Shown piece after piece: positions 69-8,626 of a stretch of 64,000 bases of DNA (within the stretch, counting starts at the first letter, position 1; each line of letters opens with the position of its first letter). Under the pieces are notes generated by a model. It saw only the letters and a program-made list of their open reading frames with translations. It made no database searches and was not told where the DNA came from. The translations under genes and the position numbers were made by a program. The DNA is from a virus (lineage: Duplodnaviria; Heunggongvirae; Uroviricota; Caudoviricetes). Where the stretch lies: IMG/VR virus record IMGVR_UViG_2728369393_000001. One strand, given 5' to 3'.

Positions 69-503
69 ATGTCTGACGTCTCAACAAACCTCTATAAGAG
101 TCAGTTGTTGGACTATTACTATCAGCGGCGCGCTGAATCGTCCATTAACAAAGGCTCTCGATTTTTAATCAGCAAGGCCGTTTTCGGTACCAGTTCACTG
201 GTTACTAAGAAAGGAGATGGCACTTATGAGATTGGAGAACTGCCAAAGGCTTTCGATCTGGCAGAACTGACCAGTCAATTTTGCACCATCAACCTCGTCC
301 CAACCTACTCAGGCGGGATAATTACTGTCCGAATGGACCTTGATCAAAGTCAGTTGCAGGAAGGGAAAAACTACCCATTCAACACTCTGGTTGTTCTGGA
401 TAACGAGAATAAGCCAATCGCCATTATTTGTGTCCAAGAAGACTCGCTGTATGTGGGCAAAACATATACCGCAGTTATGGCCATAAACTCGACTACAGCA
501 TAA
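69..503 (+). CDS. tail fibre operon protein immediately upstream of the tail fibre gene (P1 R-like by position)
   Basis: 144-aa ORF with ATG at 69, ends 12 bp before tail fibre start; no diagnostic motif. Confidence 0.4.
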   Translation: MSDVSTNLYKSQLLDYYYQRRAESSINKGSRFLISKAVFGTSSLVTKKGDGTYEIGELPKAFDLAELTSQFCTINLVPTYSGGIITVRMDLDQSQLQEGKNYPFNTLVVLDNENKPIAIICVQEDSLYVGKTYTAVMAINSTTA

Positions 504-514
504 GGATATGCTTG

Positions 515-3133
515 ATGAATGACGTTACAGTTGTTACATCGGTTACTTACCCATCACCCGAGTCGTTGGCTCTGGTGGCTGATGTGCAATACCACGAACC
601 ATATCTGTCAGCCGCTCTAAACCGAAAATTCAGGGGAATTGTTGACCCGGGATTTTATGCTGGTTTCTTGCCTAAGCCTGGCGGTGGAATGAACCTGTTA
701 ATCACCTCAGTGGATGGAGATAAAACCGCTGGCGCGGCGTCAGTGGATATTGGTGAATTCTACCAGGTAACTATTCAGCATCGTAAGGATATCTCTCTTG
801 CACTTAACGCAGGCAAGAAATATGCAATTGTGCTGAAGGGAAGATACCTTCTTGGAGAAGATACCTATCAGGTGAATACCGCGTCACATATTCATGCAGC
901 TGAATTTGTTGCCAGAACCTATACCGATTCATATCAGTTAGGTGATGGGGAACTGCTGGTTTGTACGGTGAATATCCCTGCTGGCGTATCTACCATTACT
1001 CAAGAGATGATTGATACATCCGAGCGTATCAACCGCACGATCGGCATTGATATTTCAGACTCTGTAACCAGTACCAGAAGTGATGTTGCTGCGAGTTCGC
1101 TGGCAGTTAAAAAAGCCTACGATCTGGCGAAAAGCAAATATACGGCGCAGGATGCAAGCACAACGCAAAAGGGATTAGTTCAGCTCAGTAGTGCCACTAA
1201 CAGTACGTCCGAAGTGCTGGCCGCCACACCGAAAGCTGTCAAGGCTGCATATGACCTGGCTAACGGGAAGTATACAGCCCAGGATGCAACCACGACACAA
1301 AAAGGGATAGTTCAGCTCAGTAGCGACACCAACAGCACTTCTGAAACATTAGCTGCAACTCCAAAAGCGGTTAAAGCTGCATACGATCTAGCAGCCGGAA
1401 AGGCACCATCCAGTCATACACATCCCTGGAATCAGATCACTGGTGTGCCAACAGCTTCATTGACAGCGAAAGGCATCACTCAGCTCAGTAGTGCCACTAA
1501 CAGCACGTCTGAAGTGCTGGCCGCCACACCGAAAGCTGTCAAGGCTGCATATGACCTGGCTAACGGGAAGTATACAGCCCAGGATGCAACCACGACACAA
1601 AAAGGGATAGTTCAGCTCAGTAGCGACACCAACAGCACTTCTGAAACATTAGCTGCAACTCCAAAAGCGGTTAAAGCTGCATACGATCTAGCAGCCGGAA
1701 AGGCACCATCCAGTCATACACATCCCTGGAATCAGATCACTGGTGTGCCAACAGCTTCATTGACAGCGAAAGGCATCACTCAGCTCAGTAGTGCCACTAA
1801 CAGCACGTCTGAAGTGCTGGCCGCCACACCGAAAGCTGTCAAGGCTGCATATGACCTGGCTAACGGGAAGTATACAGCCCAGGATGCAACCACGACACAA
1901 AAAGGGATAGTTCAGCTCAGTAGCGACACCAACAGCACTTCTGAAACATTAGCTGCAACTCCAAAAGCGGTTAAAGCTGCATACGATCTAGCAGCCGGAA
2001 AGGCACCATCCAGTCATACACATCCCTGGAATCAGATCACTGGTGTGCCAACAGCTTCATTGACAGCGAAAGGCATCACTCAGCTCAGTAGTGCCACTAA
2101 CAGTACGTCCGAAGTGCTGGCCGCCACACCGAAAGCTGTCAAGGCTGCATATGATTTGGCTAACGGGAAGTATACAGCCCAGGATGCAACCACGACACAA
2201 AAAGGGATAGTTCAGCTCAGTAGCGACACCAACAGCACTTCTGAAACATTAGCTGCAACTCCAAAAGCGGTTAAAGCTGCATACGATCTAGCAGCCGGAA
2301 AGGCACCATCCAGTCATACACATCCCTGGAATCAGATCACTGGTGTGCCAACAGCTTCATTGACAGCGAAAGGCATCACTCAGCTCAGTAGTGCCACTAA
2401 CAGCACGTCTGAAGTGCTGGCCGCCACACCGAAAGCTGTCAAGGCTGCATATGATTTGGCTAATGGAAAGCAAGCGGCAGACGCTACGCTCACTGCTCTA
2501 GCGGCACTAGCTACAGCAGCAGATAAACTCCCTTATTTCACAGGTGTTGATCGTGCCGCGTTAACTGCATTGACAAGTGTTGGACGCGCCATTCTTGGTA
2601 AGACCAGTATTCAGAGCGTTCTTGATTACCTTGGTTTAGGGGAAGGCTCGGCGCTGCCCGTTGGTGTACCTATTCCATGGCCCTCAGCCACACCGCCAAC
2701 GGGGTGGCTGAAATGCAATGGTGCAGCATTTTCTTCTGAAAAGTACCCAAATCTGGCAAAGGTTTACCCAACGTTAAAATTACCTGATTTACGCGGTGAG
2801 TTTATCCGTGGCTGGGATGATGGGCGAGGGATTGACTCTGGTCGCTCTATTTTAAGCGAGCAAGGATATGCAACGGAGGATCATGCTCACGGATTACCGT
2901 CAAAATCAACCGTAGCAACTGACCGCTCAATTAATTTCTACTTTGACGAGGCATGGGCTACTAGTGGTAATACGGGAGTTATCAGATGGGGGAACACAAG
3001 CGATGCAGGATTGCCAGCCCCTAATTATGGAACTTTTAAAACATATAAACAGTCCGTAGCTAATTTAGGTACTGCTGGCTTAGAAACCCGCCCTCGTAAT
3101 ATTGCATTTAATTATATTGTGAGGGCGGATTAA
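515..3133 (+). CDS. S: tail fibre protein: constant N-terminal part with 100-aa tandem repeats fused to the currently expressed variable C-terminal collar / receptor-binding domain
   Basis: ATG (MNDVTVV) 29 codons into track ORF 428..3133; repeats KAVKAAYDLA..TQKGIVQLSS; C-terminus GEGSALPVGVPIPWP..TGWLKCNGAAFSS..RGEFIRGWDDGRG (tail collar-like) ending RPRNIAFNYIVRAD. Confidence 0.88.
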   Translation: MNDVTVVTSVTYPSPESLALVADVQYHEPYLSAALNRKFRGIVDPGFYAGFLPKPGGGMNLLITSVDGDKTAGAASVDIGEFYQVTIQHRKDISLALNAGKKYAIVLKGRYLLGEDTYQVNTASHIHAAEFVARTYTDSYQLGDGELLVCTVNIPAGVSTITQEMIDTSERINRTIGIDISDSVTSTRSDVAASSLAVKKAYDLAKSKYTAQDASTTQKGLVQLSSATNSTSEVLAATPKAVKAAYDLANGKYTAQDATTTQKGIVQLSSDTNSTSETLAATPKAVKAAYDLAAGKAPSSHTHPWNQITGVPTASLTAKGITQLSSATNSTSEVLAATPKAVKAAYDLANGKYTAQDATTTQKGIVQLSSDTNSTSETLAATPKAVKAAYDLAAGKAPSSHTHPWNQITGVPTASLTAKGITQLSSATNSTSEVLAATPKAVKAAYDLANGKYTAQDATTTQKGIVQLSSDTNSTSETLAATPKAVKAAYDLAAGKAPSSHTHPWNQITGVPTASLTAKGITQLSSATNSTSEVLAATPKAVKAAYDLANGKYTAQDATTTQKGIVQLSSDTNSTSETLAATPKAVKAAYDLAAGKAPSSHTHPWNQITGVPTASLTAKGITQLSSATNSTSEVLAATPKAVKAAYDLANGKQAADATLTALAALATAADKLPYFTGVDRAALTALTSVGRAILGKTSIQSVLDYLGLGEGSALPVGVPIPWPSATPPTGWLKCNGAAFSSEKYPNLAKVYPTLKLPDLRGEFIRGWDDGRGIDSGRSILSEQGYATEDHAHGLPSKSTVATDRSINFYFDEAWATSGNTGVIRWGNTSDAGLPAPNYGTFKTYKQSVANLGTAGLETRPRNIAFNYIVRAD
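1165..2460 (+). repeat. tandem direct repeat, 300-bp unit, about 4.3 near-identical copies, inside the tail fibre CDS
   Basis: cagctcagtagtgccactaacag recurs at about 1189, 1489, 1789, 2089, 2389; copies differ by a few SNPs. Confidence 0.9.
2619..2644 (+). other. Hin/Gin-family recombination crossover site at the expressed tail fibre locus (constant/variable junction)
   Basis: TTCTTGATTACC-TT-GGTTTAGGGGAA; left half resembles hix-type half-site, right half is shared with all silent cassette sites; homology to cassettes begins exactly at the TT core. Confidence 0.7.
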
Positions 3134-3138
3134 TTATA

Positions 3139-3750
3139 TCAACTGGCTGTAGAAAGTTGTTTTTCAGGCCAGTTGAGATCTGGTGCCGTGGTTAAATCCA
3201 TCGCGTTCAGCTCGTCTATATAATCTAGCACGGAGTTAAGCTGCGTGGTTTCTGCCTGCGTCAACTTCCGTCCAGCCCGTAATTTCAACTGAATCAGACT
3301 AATGGAATCCATCGCAGTATCAATCAATGACTGACGTTTTGTTTCTGCTGCCTCTACAGCTGCACTATGTTGAGCCTCAGTATCAACCACCCATTTCTCT
3401 CCATCCCATTTGTCGTATGGTGTTAGCGGGGCGATAGTGGTTGTATTTTCCGGATAGTCACCCAACACCGTGATTTCTTCGGGATTCCCAGTGTCAATGC
3501 TATAGACAGTTTCGCCACGATGATCTGGCACATACTCCCATGAACTTAAATCCTCTGAACGGAGAATCGCATAACCTGCTTTATGTGAGCCTGGAGCATC
3601 CAAACAAGAATTTGCCGGAATACCAACGCCAACAGCAAGATATTCAGTTGATGCAGAAATATATTCCCGATTACCACCATCATAGTTATAAACGATAATG
3701 TTTCCTGCCTGTATGGCTATAAGTTCGCTATTTAATATCGCATTATCCAT
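3139..3750 (-). CDS. tail fibre assembly protein (Tfa / U-like chaperone) belonging to silent cassette 1
   Basis: 203 aa, ATG; directly downstream of cassette 1 on the minus strand; Tfa-like conserved C-terminal region. Confidence 0.7.
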   Translation of the reverse strand: MDNAILNSELIAIQAGNIIVYNYDGGNREYISASTEYLAVGVGIPANSCLDAPGSHKAGYAILRSEDLSSWEYVPDHRGETVYSIDTGNPEEITVLGDYPENTTTIAPLTPYDKWDGEKWVVDTEAQHSAAVEAAETKRQSLIDTAMDSISLIQLKLRAGRKLTQAETTQLNSVLDYIDELNAMDLTTAPDLNWPEKQLSTAS

Positions 3751-3760
3751 TATGCTGCTC

Positions 3761-4211
3761 TCACAATATAATTGAAGGCAATGTTACGTGGGCGGGTTTC
3801 ATTCCCCCAGATAACTCCGTTCTGTATTGACTGGTAAATTTACCATTAATCGCTCCTTGCCGGACGGCGTTATCTGTCGACAACAGACTATCCCCCCCTC
3901 TGTCATTTGGCACCAATACCGTGTTATCCCACGCGTCCCATGACCGAATATTATGATAATGACTTCCTGTTAACCACCCCTGTATGCTTAAGATGACCCT
4001 TCCCGCATCCACACCTCGCCCATCATCCCAACCACGGATAAACTCACCGCGTAAATCCGGTAATTTATTGGTGGGGTAGGCCTTTGCCAGTTTGGGATAC
4101 ATTTCAGAAGAAAATGCTGCACCATTGCATTTTAGCCAGCCCGTTGGTGGTGTTTCTAAGGGCCACGGAACGGGCACACCAACAGGCAGTGCAGAGCCTT
4201 CCCCAAACCAA
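3761..4211 (-). other. silent tail fibre C-terminal cassette 1 (promoterless gene segment); 1-bp deletion at the junction puts it out of frame relative to the other cassettes
   Basis: encodes GEGSALPVGVPVPWPLETPPTGWLKCNGAAFSSEMYPKLAKAYPTNKLPDLRGEFIRGWDDGRG..; junction reads ttccccaaacc (C4) where other copies have C5 or CCCCT. Confidence 0.75.
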
Positions 4212-4223
4212 CGTTTTTATGCC
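4199..4223 (-). other. cassette crossover site 1 (inverted relative to the expressed-locus site)
   Basis: plus strand TTCCCCAAACC-AA-CGTTTTTATGCC; contains the stop codon of cassette 2. Confidence 0.65.
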
Positions 4224-4687
4224 GCCCTTACGATGTAATTAAATGCAATATTACGGGGCGGGTTTCAGATGCTGTACGAACTGAGCGAGAGGCGTCGAAT
4301 GTCCAGTTATAAGAGCCATAACCCTCAATAATTTCCGTTTCCTTTAGGCCTGTAGATAATACTTGACCATGTTGACTAAATGGCCCTGAACTAAGTACAT
4401 CTCTAAAAAGCTGAGTACGCCCGAAAGAACCAACAATATTCTGAATTGCATCATTCTGTGCAGATAATAAATTACGGCCAGAGTCAATCCCCCGCCCGTC
4501 ATCCCAGCCGCGAATAAATTCGCCCGTAGATCCGGCAATTTATTAGTAGGGTAAACCTTTGCCAGATTTGGGTACTTTTCAGAAGAAAATGCTGCACCAT
4601 TGCATTTCAGCCACCCCGTTGGCGGTGTGGCTGAGGGCCATGGAACAGGTACACCAACGGGCAGTGCCGAGCCTTCCCCCAAACCAA
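4212..4687 (-). pseudogene. silent tail fibre cassette 2, degenerate (two internal -1 frameshifts)
   Basis: conserved N-part intact to PDLR, then frame lost (cgggcgaa where others have cggggcgaa); second 1-bp loss before the terminal RPRNIAFNYIVRAA motif. Confidence 0.7.
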
Positions 4688-4699
4688 CGTTTTTATGCC
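4674..4699 (-). other. cassette crossover site 2
   Basis: TTCCCCCAAACC-AA-CGTTTTTATGCC. Confidence 0.65.
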
Positions 4700-5174
4700 G
4701 CCCTTACGATGTAATTAAATGCGATATTTCGTGGACGGGTTTCACTCCCGCCAGTATTACCAATACTCCCTCGAGAATGAAGTGTCGGTGATGGAATCAA
4801 ATTCCCTCCTGTATTTGAGGCATCAAGCCCCCGTCCTTGTGTGTATGTTTTTTTGAAAATTGTCGCCAGCTCCCATTCATCTTTTGTGTCGTAACCATCA
4901 TTGGCTACAACAATATGTCGGTGCTTTTCCAGCATTCCTGTCTGAATGCTCAATAAAGCACGTCCCGCATCCACCCCGCGCCCATCATCCCAGCCGCGAA
5001 TAAATTCTCCCCGTAAATCCGGTAATTTATTGGTGGGGTAGGCCTTTGCCAGTTTGGGATACATTTCAGAAGAAAATGCTGCTCCGTTACATTTCAGCCA
5101 CCCCGTTGGCGGTGTTTCTAAGGGCCACGGAACGGGCACGCCAACGGGCAATGCTGAGCCTTCCCCCAAACCAA
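4693..5174 (-). other. silent tail fibre C-terminal cassette 3 (intact)
   Basis: in-frame from junction GEGSALPVGVPVPWP to ..TRPRNIAFNYIVRAA stop; track ORF 4693..5169. Confidence 0.8.
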
Positions 5175-5186
5175 CGTTTTTATGCC
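5161..5186 (-). other. cassette crossover site 3
   Basis: TTCCCCCAAACC-AA-CGTTTTTATGCC. Confidence 0.65.
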
Positions 5187-5688
5187 GCCCTTACGATATA
5201 ATTAAATGCAACGTTGCGAGGGCGAGTTTCTGTACCTACATTTCCACTAATTTCACCATAACGTTTAACACTACGAGAGCTAATAGCTCGTAGTGAGGAA
5301 GGCACCTTATGACCGGGTTCGTCCGTTTTAACTATTCCCCCGTCACCGTATGTAGCTAGTATTCCTGGATTTACGCCTTCCCGTGCACTTCCTGCGGCGA
5401 GTCCGTCCCCTGTCCATAATTCCATATAGTGTGCATGGTCCAAAATTGTGTGTGGCTGCCAATTAAGCAAAGCGCGGCCAGCATCCACCCCGCGCCCATC
5501 ATCCCAGCCACGGATAAATTCACCGCGTAAATCAGGTAATTTTAACGTTGGGTAAACCTTTGCCAGATTTGGGTACTTTTCAGAAGAAAATGCTGCACCA
5601 TTGCATTTCAGCCACCCCGTTGGCGGTGTGGCTGAGGGCCATGGAATAGGTACACCAACGGGCAGCGCCGAGCCTTCCCCTAAACCAA
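5180..5688 (-). other. silent tail fibre C-terminal cassette 4 (intact; conserved part nearly identical to the expressed copy)
   Basis: hand translation 5488..5690 has no stop; encodes GEGSALPVGVPIPWPSATPPTGWLKCNGAAFSSEKYPNLAKVYPTLKLPDLRGEFIRGWDDGRGVDAGRALL..RPRNVAFNYIVRAA. Confidence 0.8.
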
Positions 5689-5700
5689 CGTTTTCATGCC
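5675..5700 (-). other. cassette crossover site 4
   Basis: TTCCCCTAAACC-AA-CGTTTTCATGCC. Confidence 0.65.
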
Positions 5701-6127
5701 GCCCTTACGATATAATTAAACGCAATGTTACGAGGACGAATGGTTACATAATTAACCCCATCACCTCGTGAAGGCCCTGCAAATGAAAAACGGGAAAATC
5801 CTGGTTGGTTAGAAACAATTTGGTCATAGTTATTGATTGAATGACCAGACCCAATGTCGAAATTACCTCCGTAATGAGAAAAACTTGTACCATCCTGCCC
5901 TGAAAGCAGGGTACGTCCCGCATCAATCCCGCGCCCATCATCCCAGCCACGGATAAATTCACCGCGTAAATCCGGTAATTTATTGGTGGGGTAGGCTTTT
6001 GCCAGTTTGGGATACATTTCAGAAGAAAATGCTGCACCATTGCATTTTAGCCAGCCCGTTGGTGGTGTTTCTAAGGGCCACGGAACGGGCACACCAACAG
6101 GCAGTGCAGAGCCTTCCCCCAAACCAA
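5694..6127 (-). other. silent tail fibre C-terminal cassette 5 (intact)
   Basis: track ORF 5694..6122, GEGS..RPRNIAFNYIVRAA. Confidence 0.8.
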
Positions 6128-6139
6128 CGTTTTTATGCC
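6114..6139 (-). other. cassette crossover site 5
   Basis: TTCCCCCAAACC-AA-CGTTTTTATGCC. Confidence 0.65.
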
Positions 6140-6566
6140 GCCCTTACGATGTAATTAAATGCGATATTTCGCGGCCTGACAGCAACAAAATTTATACCAT
6201 CACCTACAGAGTTACTGGTGAAATTAAATCGTGAAAATCCTGGCTGATTTCCGACGATGCCATCATGAAAATTAATTGCGTGCCCTGCACCATCGCCTAT
6301 ATTTCCGGCACGCTGAGAAAAGTTTGTAGCCTCTTGGCTGCTTAATAATGCTCGCCCATTGTCCACACCTCGTCCATCATCCCAACCTCGAATAAATTCG
6401 CCCCGTAGATCCGGCAATTTATTAGTGGGGTAAACCTTTGCCAGATTTGGGTACTTTTCAGAAGAAAATGCTGCTCCGTTACATTTCAGCCACCCCGTTG
6501 GTGGTGTGGCGGAGGGCCATGGAACAGGTACACCAACGGGCAGCGCCGAGCCTTCCCCTAAACCAA
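6133..6566 (-). other. silent tail fibre C-terminal cassette 6 (intact)
   Basis: track ORF 6133..6417 starts at an internal TTG; hand translation shows the frame stays open up to the junction. Confidence 0.75.
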
Positions 6567-6578
6567 CGTTTTTATGCC
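6553..6578 (-). other. cassette crossover site 6
   Basis: TTCCCCTAAACC-AA-CGTTTTTATGCC. Confidence 0.65.
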
Positions 6579-7038
6579 GCCCTTACGATATAATTAAAGG
6601 CAATATTACGAGGACGGTTTTCATTAGCTGTTGGCACGACACGAGAGGCGTCGAATCCAAGGTCATCGGTTTTGCCTATATCAGTTGTGTTATTCGGCAT
6701 TCTCGCAGATCGTGTTCCTGCATCATAAAAAGCCCCTCTGATTGCATCAAAAGACATGCCAATCCCGCCATCGGCGAACCCCTCAATATTTCTTATTGCA
6801 TCCCCCTGTGAAGATAATAATTGTCGCCCGGCATCCACACCACGTCCGTCATCCCAGCCACGAATAAATTCACCGCGTAAATCCGGCAATTTATTAGTAG
6901 GGTAAGCCTTTGCCAGATTTGGGTACTTTTCAGAAGAAAATGCTGCTCCGTTACATTTCAGCCACCCCGTTGGCGGAGTGGCTGAGGGCCACGGAACAGG
7001 TACGCCAACAGGCAATGCTGAGCCTTCCCCCAAACCAA
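6572..7038 (-). other. silent tail fibre C-terminal cassette 7 (intact)
   Basis: track ORF 6572..7033, GEGS..NRPRNIAFNYIVRAA. Confidence 0.8.
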
Positions 7039-7050
7039 CGTTTTTATGTG
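7025..7050 (-). other. cassette crossover site 7
   Basis: TTCCCCCAAACC-AA-CGTTTTTATGTG. Confidence 0.6.
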
Positions 7051-7552
7051 GCCCTTACAATGTAATTAAAAGCAACGTTGCGGGGGCGCATTGATATCCA
7101 TGCCCCGGTAAAATTATCCTCTGCCGTCCTTTGAGTGCCTGTTATGGAGTTATCTGATGATGCTGGAACATAATCGCTATTATCTCCTGCTTTAGGATTA
7201 GCAGGGTTTCCAACAGTTATAACAGAATCAGCAGTAGCATAAGCGATACCTACTTTGACATTAGTAGTCAGATCGACACCGTAATAATCCTGCAAAGCTG
7301 TACGAATAAATGTTGCAGTCTGACCACTTAGCAATGAACGCCCTGTATCAATCCCTCTCGAATCATCCCAACCACGGATAAACTCACCGCGTAAATCAGG
7401 TAATTTTAACGTTGGGTAAACCTTTGCCAGATTTGGGTACTTTTCAGAAGAAAATGCTGCTCCGTTACATTTCAGCCACCCCGTTGGTGGTGTGGCGGAG
7501 GGCCACGGAACAGGCACACCAACGGGCAGCGCCGAGCCTTCCCCTAAACCAA
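7044..7552 (-). other. silent tail fibre C-terminal cassette 8 (invertase-proximal)
   Basis: track ORF 7044..7517 plus upstream conserved junction; ends MRPRNVAFNYIVRAT. Confidence 0.75.
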
Positions 7553-7564
7553 CGTTTTAGTCTT
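7539..7564 (-). other. cassette crossover site 8, last of the array, 55 bp from the invertase start
   Basis: TTCCCCTAAACC-AA-CGTTTTAGTCTT. Confidence 0.6.
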
Positions 7565-7618
7565 AATCCCTACCTATACCAACGATGTATTTTTAACTAA
7601 ACAAAGAGGTTGTTTTTC

Positions 7619-8191
7619 ATGCAAATTGGCTACATTCGTGTGTCAACAAATGACCAAAACACAGATTTACAAAGAAATGCACTGAATTGCGCAGGATGTG
7701 AACTGATTTTTGAAGATAAAATAAGCGGAACAAAGTCAGCCAGACCAGGCTTGAAAAAGCTGCTCAGAACGTTATCAGAAGGAGATACGCTGGTTGTCTG
7801 GAAGCTGGATAGGCTTGGCAGAAGTATGAAACACCTTATCACGCTTATAGAGGAGTTGCGGGAAAAAGGTGTTAATTTCCGTAGTCTGACAGACAGTATT
7901 GACACATCAACACCCATGGGGCGTTTCTTTTTTCATGTCATGGGTGCTTTAGCAGAAATGGAACGTGAATTAATTGTTGAGAGAACACTGGCCGGACTGG
8001 CAGCTGCACGCGAACAGGGACGCATTGGCGGACGTCGCCCGAAGTTGACAAAAGAACAACATGAGCAAATAGCGAGGTTGATCGAAAATGGCTACAGCAG
8101 GAAACAGTTGGCAATTATTTACGATATCGGTGTATCGACGATTTATCGTTATCATCCTGTAGAGAAGCGCCAAACTCAATCTGAGCTGTAA
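7619..8191 (+). CDS. cin: serine recombinase DNA invertase (Hin/Gin/Cin/Pin/Min family)
   Basis: MQIGYIRVSTNDQNTDLQ (catalytic Ser), C-terminal HTH; ATG at 7619 with AGAGG RBS; adjacent to the cassette array. Confidence 0.9.
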   Translation: MQIGYIRVSTNDQNTDLQRNALNCAGCELIFEDKISGTKSARPGLKKLLRTLSEGDTLVVWKLDRLGRSMKHLITLIEELREKGVNFRSLTDSIDTSTPMGRFFFHVMGALAEMERELIVERTLAGLAAAREQGRIGGRRPKLTKEQHEQIARLIENGYSRKQLAIIYDIGVSTIYRYHPVEKRQTQSEL

Positions 8192-8626
8192 TTCTAATGC
8201 CGCGTCGGTGTAATTTATCTTGATAGAATAGGTACATTTATCGCGCGGCACATCAATTCGATGTATCTAGCGCCTGCTGACCGCTAATGAAAACTGTTCT
8301 CGAAATGTTGTCCCTAGTCCGAGACTAGGGTATCACCTCTGGAAAGCATACGCAGAACCTTTTTTAACCCAGGGTGCCCAGTTTTTTTGCTGCTCGCCTT
8401 ATTCGCAAAAATTAGCTCACATCCTGCGCTTTCAAGTGCTTTTCACTGCATAGCTGTGTTTTGTTCATTTGTCTATATGCATACATAGCCTATTAACATA
8501 TTTTCTGCCCACTATCGTTATTTATTGCAAGCTACAGGTTTTAATTAACAAAACCAGTGTGTGTGGAAATCACAAAGTGCATACCGTTCTCAAATGTTGT
8601 TCAACTTACTGTTGTATAGGTAAAAA

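Follow-up and report, generated by a model that had tools for sequence, protein, structure and literature searches.

A nine-site, Min-type DNA-inversion locus that probably swaps the tail-fibre tip of a P1-like phage-plasmid

Introduction

Does a tail-fibre locus with one expressed tip, eight silent tips, and a gene for a DNA invertase still exchange the tip of the fibre, and is so large a set of tips new? These questions are raised by a P1-like phage-plasmid, IMG/VR record IMGVR_UViG_2728369393_000001, of which we analysed a stretch of 64,000 nt (the window). We believe that the locus is very likely a Min multiple DNA-inversion system, like that of plasmid p15B but with nine sites, and that it exchanges the receptor-binding tip of the tail fibre. 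The system in the window is real and probably active; its kind is known, and is frequent among sequenced E. coli plasmids. The kinship with phage P1 is close: positions 8,200-33,000 of the window are 97.3% identical to P1 across 96% of their length, and positions 1-1261 are 95.3% identical to P1 38355-37095, which includes the late promoter LPs, gene R, and the 5' end of the tail-fibre gene S.

The mechanism of inversion in this family of elements has been established since the 1980s and 1990s, and this locus does not change it. The Min system of p15B (from E. coli 15T-; X62121) was reportedly described by Sandmeier, Iida, Arber and colleagues in 1990-1992, and it is said to have six sites and an invertible region of 3.5 kb. 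In the window, a first-pass annotation had listed a tail-fibre gene, eight minus-strand cassettes, inverted sites, and an invertase gene, and all of these elements are in place. In its reading, a single C-terminus is expressed, the other cassettes are silent and lack promoters, the 26-bp sites are inverted, and the invertase is of the Hin family. This mechanistic reading is well supported, because six of the eight silent cassettes give in-frame fusions and because related plasmids are inversion isomers that exchange inside the site. The annotation also considered the repertoire to be unusually large, and that claim fared less well.

Results

One expressed tip and eight silent cassettes

Gene S (518-3133, plus strand) is in our list of open reading frames (ORFs) and has two parts. 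The constant 5' part, Sc (518-2630), contains ten Phage_fiber_2 repeats (E = 5e-186), and its first ~750 nt are homologous to S of P1. The C-terminus that is currently expressed, cassette A (2631-3133, plus strand), encodes 167 amino acids and ends in ...NYIVRAD. In sequence, A resembles the solved structures of a short tail fibre (PDB 9cuy, E = 1.5e-16) and of the tip of gp37 from phage T4 (PDB 2xgf, E = 1.7e-15). The Pfam domain Collar (PF07484) is found in A and in all six of the intact silent cassettes, in agreement with the collar-like C-terminal domain that had been proposed for the fibre.

The silent cassettes, B to I, lie on the minus strand. As a check of their reading frames, we joined Sc in silico to each cassette at the core dinucleotide of the crossover site. 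Cassettes 3 to 8 are intact: D (4693-5174, with a 160-residue fusion tail), E (5180-5688), F (5694-6127), G (6133-6566), H (6572-7038), and I (7044-7552, which ends in ...VRAT) each give an uninterrupted in-frame C-terminus through to RPRN..VRA(A/T). Cassettes 1 and 2 are each broken by two 1-nt deletions, which are in G runs in B (3750-4211) and shorten G4 to G3 and C5 to C4 in C (4217-4687). The layout of a cassette is ~72 conserved residues (GEGSALPVGVP...RGWDDGRG), then 64-89 variable residues, and then RPRN(I/V)AFNYIVRA(A/D/T). The first-pass annotation gave this ending to every cassette, which is right for six of the eight but not for the two that are frameshifted. It was also right that the variable region differs in each cassette, but the length is about 64-89 amino acids rather than ~90.

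Might these segments be independent genes instead, i.e., paralogous tail proteins that are each expressed on their own? In related plasmids, the Prokaryotic Genome Annotation Pipeline (PGAP) annotates "phage tail protein" coding sequences of 411-510 nt, and the ORFs begin at TTG or GTG. (In the window, ORFs are called on the minus strand at 4344-4682, 4693-5169, 5694-6122, and 6572-7033, and there are equivalent calls in loci L001-L014, which are described below.) However, the called TTG start is part of the crossover site (GGTTTGGGGGAA), so the separate gene calls are artefacts. The reading frame is also open upstream of this start, into the stop codon of the previous cassette, and the products would be tips of 140-170 amino acids without a shaft or an attachment domain. 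Furthermore, for each of the types A, D, E, F (which has a frameshift in the record concerned), G, H, and Q, there is a plasmid in which the type is fused to Sc. None of the eight downstream tips has its own start codon, ribosome-binding site, or promoter, nor is any ribosome-binding site or promoter conserved. When we scanned the silent cassettes for promoters, we found 9 promoter-like hits, all weak, versus 14 expected, so the segments do seem to be promoterless, as had been proposed. Given the start inside the site, the open frame upstream, and the lack of an excess of promoters, we rejected the independent-gene reading, which we find scarcely credible.

Nine crossover sites share a core

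The motif TTGGTTTRGGGGAA occurs 8 times in the 64 kb, versus 0.06 occurrences expected by chance, and all of these are within the locus. A ninth site, at cassette 1, is one G short and was recovered only by allowing mismatches. All nine sites have a TT core on the coding strand. Site 0, a mix-like site found by the motif search (2619-2644, plus strand; TTCTTGATTACC-TT-GGTTTAGGGGAA, with the core at 2631-2632), is inverted relative to the other eight. These are on the minus strand: site 1 (4199-4223), from the mismatch search, and sites 2 (4674-4699), 3 (5161-5186), 4 (5675-5700), 5 (6114-6139), 6 (6553-6578), 7 (7025-7050), and 8 (7539-7564, the fixed outer site). The description of these as 26-bp inverted sites is accurate as to their orientation and their shared core. 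However, site 1 has only 25 bp (a run of five Gs in its right half-site is shortened to four), and the left half-site is not uniform.

The variation in the left half-site is informative about what lies next to it. Among the eight minus-strand sites, the left half is GGCATAAAAACG in five, GGCATGAAAACG in one (site 4), CACATAAAAACG in one (site 7), and AAGACTAAAACG in one (site 8). The left half-site is the 3' end of the upstream unit: GGCATAAAAACG or GGCATGAAAACG holds the stop codon of a cassette that ends in ...VRAA, in CACATAAAAACG, the stop is that of cassette I (...VRAT), and AAGACTAAAACG belongs to the fixed flank. The right half, TTCCCCYAAACC when read outward, fits the family consensus TTCCC.TAAAC (quoted from Sandmeier 1994 in PMC4134206), and the left halves are degenerate (..AAAACG or ..ATTACC). 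PacBio reads from E. coli EC958 have revealed inversion in prophage Phi2, at sites that are nearly the same (..ATTACC-TT-GGTTTAGGAGAA and ..TAAACG-TT-GGTTTGGGGGAA).

The sites are embedded in longer repeats. A repeat finder reported eight inverted-repeat pairs, of 166-237 nt and 80-95% complementary, that link 2623-2864 to each of the minus-strand junctions. It also reported an eight-copy family of direct repeats that are spaced by 439-514 nt and run from 3980 to 7619.

Related plasmids are inversion isomers

We examined fourteen loci (L001-L014) from twelve plasmids, typed each cassette by its variable part, and counted the sites directly. Three plasmids carry exactly the same nine cassette types as the window, but in other orders and orientations. 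The window reads +A -B -C -D -E -F -G -H -I; pCDF6_3 (L003) reads +E +F +G +A -B -H -I -C -D; p160070-MCR (L008) reads +H +E +A -B -C -D -I -F -G; and pMCR_SCKP-LL83 (L010) reads +G +E +C +F +I +D +A -B -H. Legal inversions, which involve oppositely oriented sites only, connect 5 of the 6 pairs of plasmids in 4-6 steps. The remaining pair, the window and L010, was not linked by the pairwise search, which was capped; full enumeration reaches every state. L008 and L010, both from Klebsiella, are each 97,393 bp, with flanks of 6,016 and 5,223 nt that are 100% identical and with nine identical junctions. The sole difference between these two plasmids is at least four inversions.

Rearrangements like these might not require the invertase. 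RecA-type homologous recombination between the inverted junction repeats, of 166-237 nt, could also rearrange the array. The junction repeats are long and 80-95% identical, and junction haplotypes are mosaic across distant plasmids. Also, the arrays range in size from 1 to 17, with duplicated cassettes, and this does require unequal homologous exchange. We scored the exchange point in the four nine-cassette plasmids. The variant of the left half-site tracks the upstream unit in the 35 cassette instances that were scored, out of 36; cassette B of the window is outside the site pattern. On the other side of the core, the next 213 nt track the variable part of the same cassette, and each type other than C has 0-4 differences. 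(The junction types differ from one another by 13-41 positions.) Since the half-site follows the upstream unit and the junction follows its own variable part, exchange occurs inside TT-GGTTT, as expected for a site-specific recombinase but not for general homologous recombination.

Other observations also argue against homologous recombination as the cause of the inversions. The switch of haplotype is always within TT-GGTTT, and there is no chimeric junction in the four nine-cassette plasmids, where C varies by lineage and not by position. The part of Sc to the left of the site has no homology to the cassettes, yet the joint is always exactly at the site. Finally, the arrangement of all of the loci follows the polarity of the half-sites, as explained below. 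We consider it very unlikely that homologous recombination drives the rearrangement of the array, and we rejected it as the inversion mechanism for the close relatives. We retained it as the likely cause of changes in copy number and of mosaic junctions.

Under inversion by the recombinase, the possible arrangements follow a simple grammar. A single cassette begins (5') with a right half-site and ends (3') with a left one. A left half is also contributed by Sc and by the flank on the invertase side, and A lies tail to tail with the unit of cassette B and its chaperone gene tfa, with no site in between. Because of this polarity, every product must consist of Sc, plus-strand cassettes, the A/tfa-B unit in either orientation, minus-strand cassettes, and then the invertase gene. 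All twelve plasmids obey this grammar. By exhaustive enumeration, n sites can reach 2(n-1)! states; six sites have 240, and nine have 80,640 (2 x 8!). In this model, nine sites give nine alternative expressed tips. The "strictly tandem" array that had been described for the window is indeed its layout, but it is merely one of the 80,640 isomers, and it is shared with four of the other loci that we fetched.

The invertase seems intact

The invertase gene (7619-8191, plus strand) encodes a Min-type serine DNA invertase of 190 amino acids, with Resolvase (PF00239, E = 2e-51) and HTH_7 (PF02796, E = 4e-15) domains. Its ATG start codon is 54 bp past the last site; a serine invertase had been expected there, but with a gap of 55 bp. 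The protein matches Gin from phage Mu over its full length (PDB 4m6f, E = 4e-92; PDB 3uj3, E = 2e-91), and it retains the catalytic Ser9 within a conserved RVSTNDQ. Many E. coli plasmids encode proteins that are 99% identical to it, and at the DNA level, the gene is 69% identical to cin from P1. A search of a protein database with the invertase returned only generic names ("recombinase family protein") and never "Min". The invertase from pJIE250-3 (MN510445) has been reported to be 98.5% identical to Min.

The 5' end of the gene also includes a putative Fis-dependent recombinational enhancer (7643-7713, plus strand), which we identified by homology to P1. It is identical to the annotated cin enhancer of P1 at 59 of 71 positions, without gaps, and its invariant blocks are at synonymous positions. 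Two loose Fis-like 15-mers, with centres at 7647 and 7696 (49 bp apart), coincide with these invariant blocks.

Still, an array that is derived from Min might have become locked, with the invertase or the sites inactive or the enhancer lost, so that only tip A is expressed. Two cassettes and one site have frameshifting deletions, the all-tandem state with A expressed is found in four other loci as well, and Venturini et al. reported P1-like plasmids with a degraded switch. On the other hand, the ORF for the invertase is full length, with Ser9 in place, and its product is 99% identical to the protein of plasmids that do form isomers. Eight of the nine sites are intact and share a common core.

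This leaves the deletions themselves. Set against their unbroken counterparts in pCDF6_3, B has three differences and C has two. All but one of the five are 1-nt deletions: G5 to G4 (in site 1), G6 to G5, G4 to G3, and C5 to C4, at approximately positions 4209, 3813, 4525, and 4258. All four are in homopolymers and in the repeated parts of the cassettes, while 4.6 kb of flanking backbone has no indel relative to pCDF6_3. Because the deletions are confined to homopolymers within repeats and the flank is clean, which is typical of assembly error, such error fits better than decay. From their sequence context, the deletions are probably unpolished homopolymer errors from long reads, in regions where short reads map to multiple places or where isomers are mixed. 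We therefore consider a locked array to be unlikely, although less so than homologous recombination.

Evidence against an active Min system

Several observations weigh against the interpretation of the locus as an active relative of p15B Min. After fusion at the core, the RPRN...VRAA ends of cassettes 1 and 2 are out of frame, and if the deletions in B and C and the 25-bp site 1 are real, then two of the variants are dead. Five of the twelve plasmids that we examined, including the window, are in the all-tandem, A-expressed state; inversion could be infrequent, or this state could be favoured. The junction of cassette C has 17 differences between L003 and L008, and C in the window is shifted by its indel. 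In more distant plasmids among L001-L014, one cassette type can have mosaic junction haplotypes (the median number of differences within a type is 4-42). The mosaic junctions, together with the divergence of cassette C, imply that the array is also subject to gene conversion or homologous recombination. That Fis would bind the enhancer-like stretch is suggested by homology and a loose motif, so the enhancer is putative. The link to p15B is indirect, as it runs through secondary sources and coordinate arithmetic. Finally, we infer inversion in this particular plasmid from its relatives.

Comparison to p15B and other inversion systems

The locus has the hallmarks of Din-type systems (Hin, Gin, Cin, Pin, and Min): a recombinase of ~190 amino acids, the expected site structure, a shared core, and inverted partners. 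More specifically, it resembles Min of p15B in having more than two sites, which give overlapping invertible segments, with one constant part and several tips.

Further evidence for the identity with Min comes from numbers. The published number of isomers for p15B Min is 240, which is also what our enumeration gives for six sites, and this agreement supports the identification. In a six-site relative, pRHBSTW-00503_2, the invertible region is 3,533 bp, in line with the 3.5 kb given above for p15B. Zhou et al. (2018; PMC5786510) reported that a 5-kb segment of pMCR_SCKP-LL83 is 99% identical, at 92% coverage, to p15B min. As described above, this plasmid (L010) shares all nine of the window's cassettes, and the junctions have 0-4 differences except for cassette C. 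In the GenBank record for P1, the enhancer is listed as "83 pct identical (0 gaps)" to nt 6463-6533 of p15B, and the enhancer-like stretch in the window, at 59/71, has the same 83% ungapped identity to P1. Notes in that record imply that p15B also holds a 5' remnant of cin, and the spacing between the enhancer and the cin remnant in the window, 684 nt, is the value implied by the p15B coordinates. By coordinate arithmetic, not by alignment, the distance between shared anchors is greater in the window than in p15B, by 1,692 nt. This equals the length of cassettes F, G, and I (439 + 439 + 514 = 1,392 nt) plus one 300-nt repeat of Sc. By these lengths, the window looks like p15B plus three cassettes.

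The similarity to p15B extends across the locus. Both elements are P1-related IncY phage-plasmids, with an R-S operon, tandem repeats in Sc, an invertible cluster, an invertase gene in the same orientation, and a 5' remnant of cin. Both have a serine invertase, 26-bp sites, and one tail-to-tail unit with a chaperone gene alongside single cassettes. They differ in that the window has nine sites, an invertible region of 4.9 kb, and 80,640 possible isomers, versus 240 for p15B.

The Cin system of P1 and P7 (and Gin of Mu) has the same backbone, genome position, and recombinase family, an enhancer (putative in the window) in the 5' coding region, and the same logic of a constant Sc that is fused to alternative Sv parts. 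However, the window does not have a C-segment of the P1/P7 kind. P1 has two cix sites, one 4.2-kb segment, and two Sv-U sets, whereas the window has nine sites and one chaperone. The tips in the window are of the Collar type (similar to gp12 or gp37 of T4) and not like Sv of P1 or Mu. The DNA of the invertase gene has only 69% identity to cin, and the only cin in the window is a dead fragment of 177 nt, which is downstream.

Two other kinds of system are more distant. Invertible fibre segments in E. coli prophages (such as Phi2 of EC958, and Pin of e14) have near-identical sites, which are flanked by inverted repeats of ~200 bp that contain them, and a Collar domain is fused there to Phage_fibre_2 repeats, but they have two sites and a single invertible segment. 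IncI shufflons (R64, with the recombinase Rci) and Rin from bifidobacterial prophages also have a constant 5' part, multiple overlapping inversions, and several 3' cassettes. But these use a tyrosine recombinase and other sites (11-bp repeats in Rin), and the target of the shufflon is pilV. The window, with its serine recombinase and a tail fibre as the target, is not a shufflon of the R64 type.

How large are Min arrays?

To see how widespread this junction is, we searched for its 232-nt sequence in other replicons. It is present in 170 plasmids from PLSDB, with 757 copies in all and typically 4-9 copies per plasmid. Nearly all of these plasmids are non-mobilizable E. coli replicons of ~95 kb. 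The junction is also present in 801 of 5,426 complete E. coli genomes.

We considered using the number of BLAST places in each record as the number of cassettes, but rejected it as an exact measure: two error-rich assemblies had 13-14 places, and in these we counted nine sites. A linear record with the locus at both of its ends had 12 places. Among clean assemblies, the commonest maximum is nine sites (the window, L003, L007, L008, and L010). Two RefSeq records have larger arrays. NZ_CP135665.1 (L013, 5146-14108) has 17 sites, and all of its cassettes are in frame; NZ_CP196102.1 (L014, 5233-12128) has 13 sites, and all but one of its cassettes are in frame. Some cassette types in L013 and L014 are duplicated (for example, D is present four times and Q three times). 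These arrays could be real expansions by unequal exchange, or the assembler could have concatenated isomers; either would account for them.

Could the nine-site array of the window itself have been inflated in this way, from a mixed population? Such artefacts do occur. In NZ_LR882977.1 (L012, 1-6700), the invertase-holin block is duplicated along with three cassettes, and NZ_CP122504.1 (L009 and L011) is a linear record that has the inversion locus at each end. Both of these assemblies are rich in frameshifts. The window, however, has nine different cassette types without any duplicate, the same nine types are found once each in three independent plasmids, and the flanks are collinear with P1 and p15B. 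Inflation by misassembly is thus extremely improbable for the window. More generally, invertible arrays appear to break plasmid assemblies, and some of the large site counts in other records are artefacts of assembly.

These counts bear on the claim that the repertoire in the window is unusually large. The claim is not supported: the locus corresponds to p15B Min with three additional cassettes, the set of nine cassettes was already published, arrays with 13 and 17 sites exist in RefSeq, and two of the eight silent cassettes are broken here. It is right only relative to the literature of the 1990s. In the literature that we searched, we found no description of Min arrays of more than six sites or of their dynamics, only statements that the cin-S region varies.

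Other features of the locus

The gene for the tail-fibre assembly chaperone, tfa (3139-3750, minus strand; Caudo_TAP, PF02413, E = 3e-30), is co-oriented with cassette B only, and it adjoins a B-type cassette in all of the annotated loci. The first-pass annotation noted that just one cassette has a chaperone, and this held in every locus that we examined. Cassette A and tfa face each other tail to tail, and only 5 nt separate the two stop codons (3133-3139). At present, tfa opposes the late operon, so it would be co-transcribed with the fibre only when B is the expressed tip.

Upstream of S is a homologue of gene R (69-503, plus strand, identified by homology to P1), the first gene in the tail-fibre operon. 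The P1 late promoter LPs aligns at around 20-38, just upstream of R. Within Sc, at 1180-2470 on the plus strand, there are ~4.3 tandem copies of a 300-nt repeat, which are 99% identical (repeat families D2 and D3). Each 300-nt unit is made up of two diverged 91-nt sub-repeats. The tail-fibre coding sequences of the relatives vary from 1,485 to 3,024 nt, and this wide range suggests that the length of the fibre's shaft changes via the number of repeats.

Downstream of the invertase gene, at a distance of 132 nt, is a remnant of a cin-like gene (8323-8499, minus strand). It comprises the first 177 nt, of which 154 are identical to P1 cin, and it has two in-frame stop codons. The remnant includes a second enhancer-like copy (8410-8480), which is identical to P1 at 61 of 71 positions. 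It looks like the scar of a replacement of Cin by Min.

Discussion

By homology to P1 and to the Gin, Hin, and Cin systems, we propose that the locus would work as follows. Late transcription from a P1-type LPs promoter would read through R and then S. The invertase would pair two inverted sites, cut at the 2-bp core, rotate the ends, and religate them, and a Fis-bound enhancer in the 5' coding region of the invertase gene would probably assist, as for Hin, Gin, and Cin. Each event would invert everything between the two sites and thereby bring a new tip in frame behind Sc. Deletion between directly repeated sites would be avoided, because recombinases of this family act only on inverted sites. 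A population of lysogens would then release virions with differing host specificities.

A broader claim is that P1-like phage-plasmids, including carriers of mcr-1 or of extended-spectrum beta-lactamases (ESBL), actively shuffle Min arrays of 9 to 17 cassettes. In this scenario, the arrays would be resized by unequal exchange between the ~215-nt junction repeats, only the B tip would need tfa, and the other tips would fold without a dedicated chaperone. To us, the chances that this claim is right or wrong seem evenly balanced. If it is true, then this would be the largest inversion-encoded receptor-binding repertoire that is known for any phage, with nine or more tips and ~10^5 or more isomers. 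A population-level description of the expanded arrays would be a modest contribution, rather than a new kind of system.

There are practical consequences for reading assemblies: mixtures of isomers lead to misassemblies and to unpolished errors, and silent cassettes are annotated as genes. The locus might also be of use as a natural, multi-state DNA shuffler.

For the biology of these elements, the switch matters because it decides which bacteria a P1-like phage-plasmid adsorbs to. Such elements move antibiotic-resistance genes among the Enterobacteriaceae, and two of the relatives that we examined carry mcr-1 in Klebsiella. That many of them have nine or more interchangeable tips, compared to two in P1 and six in p15B, bears on the prediction of their host range.

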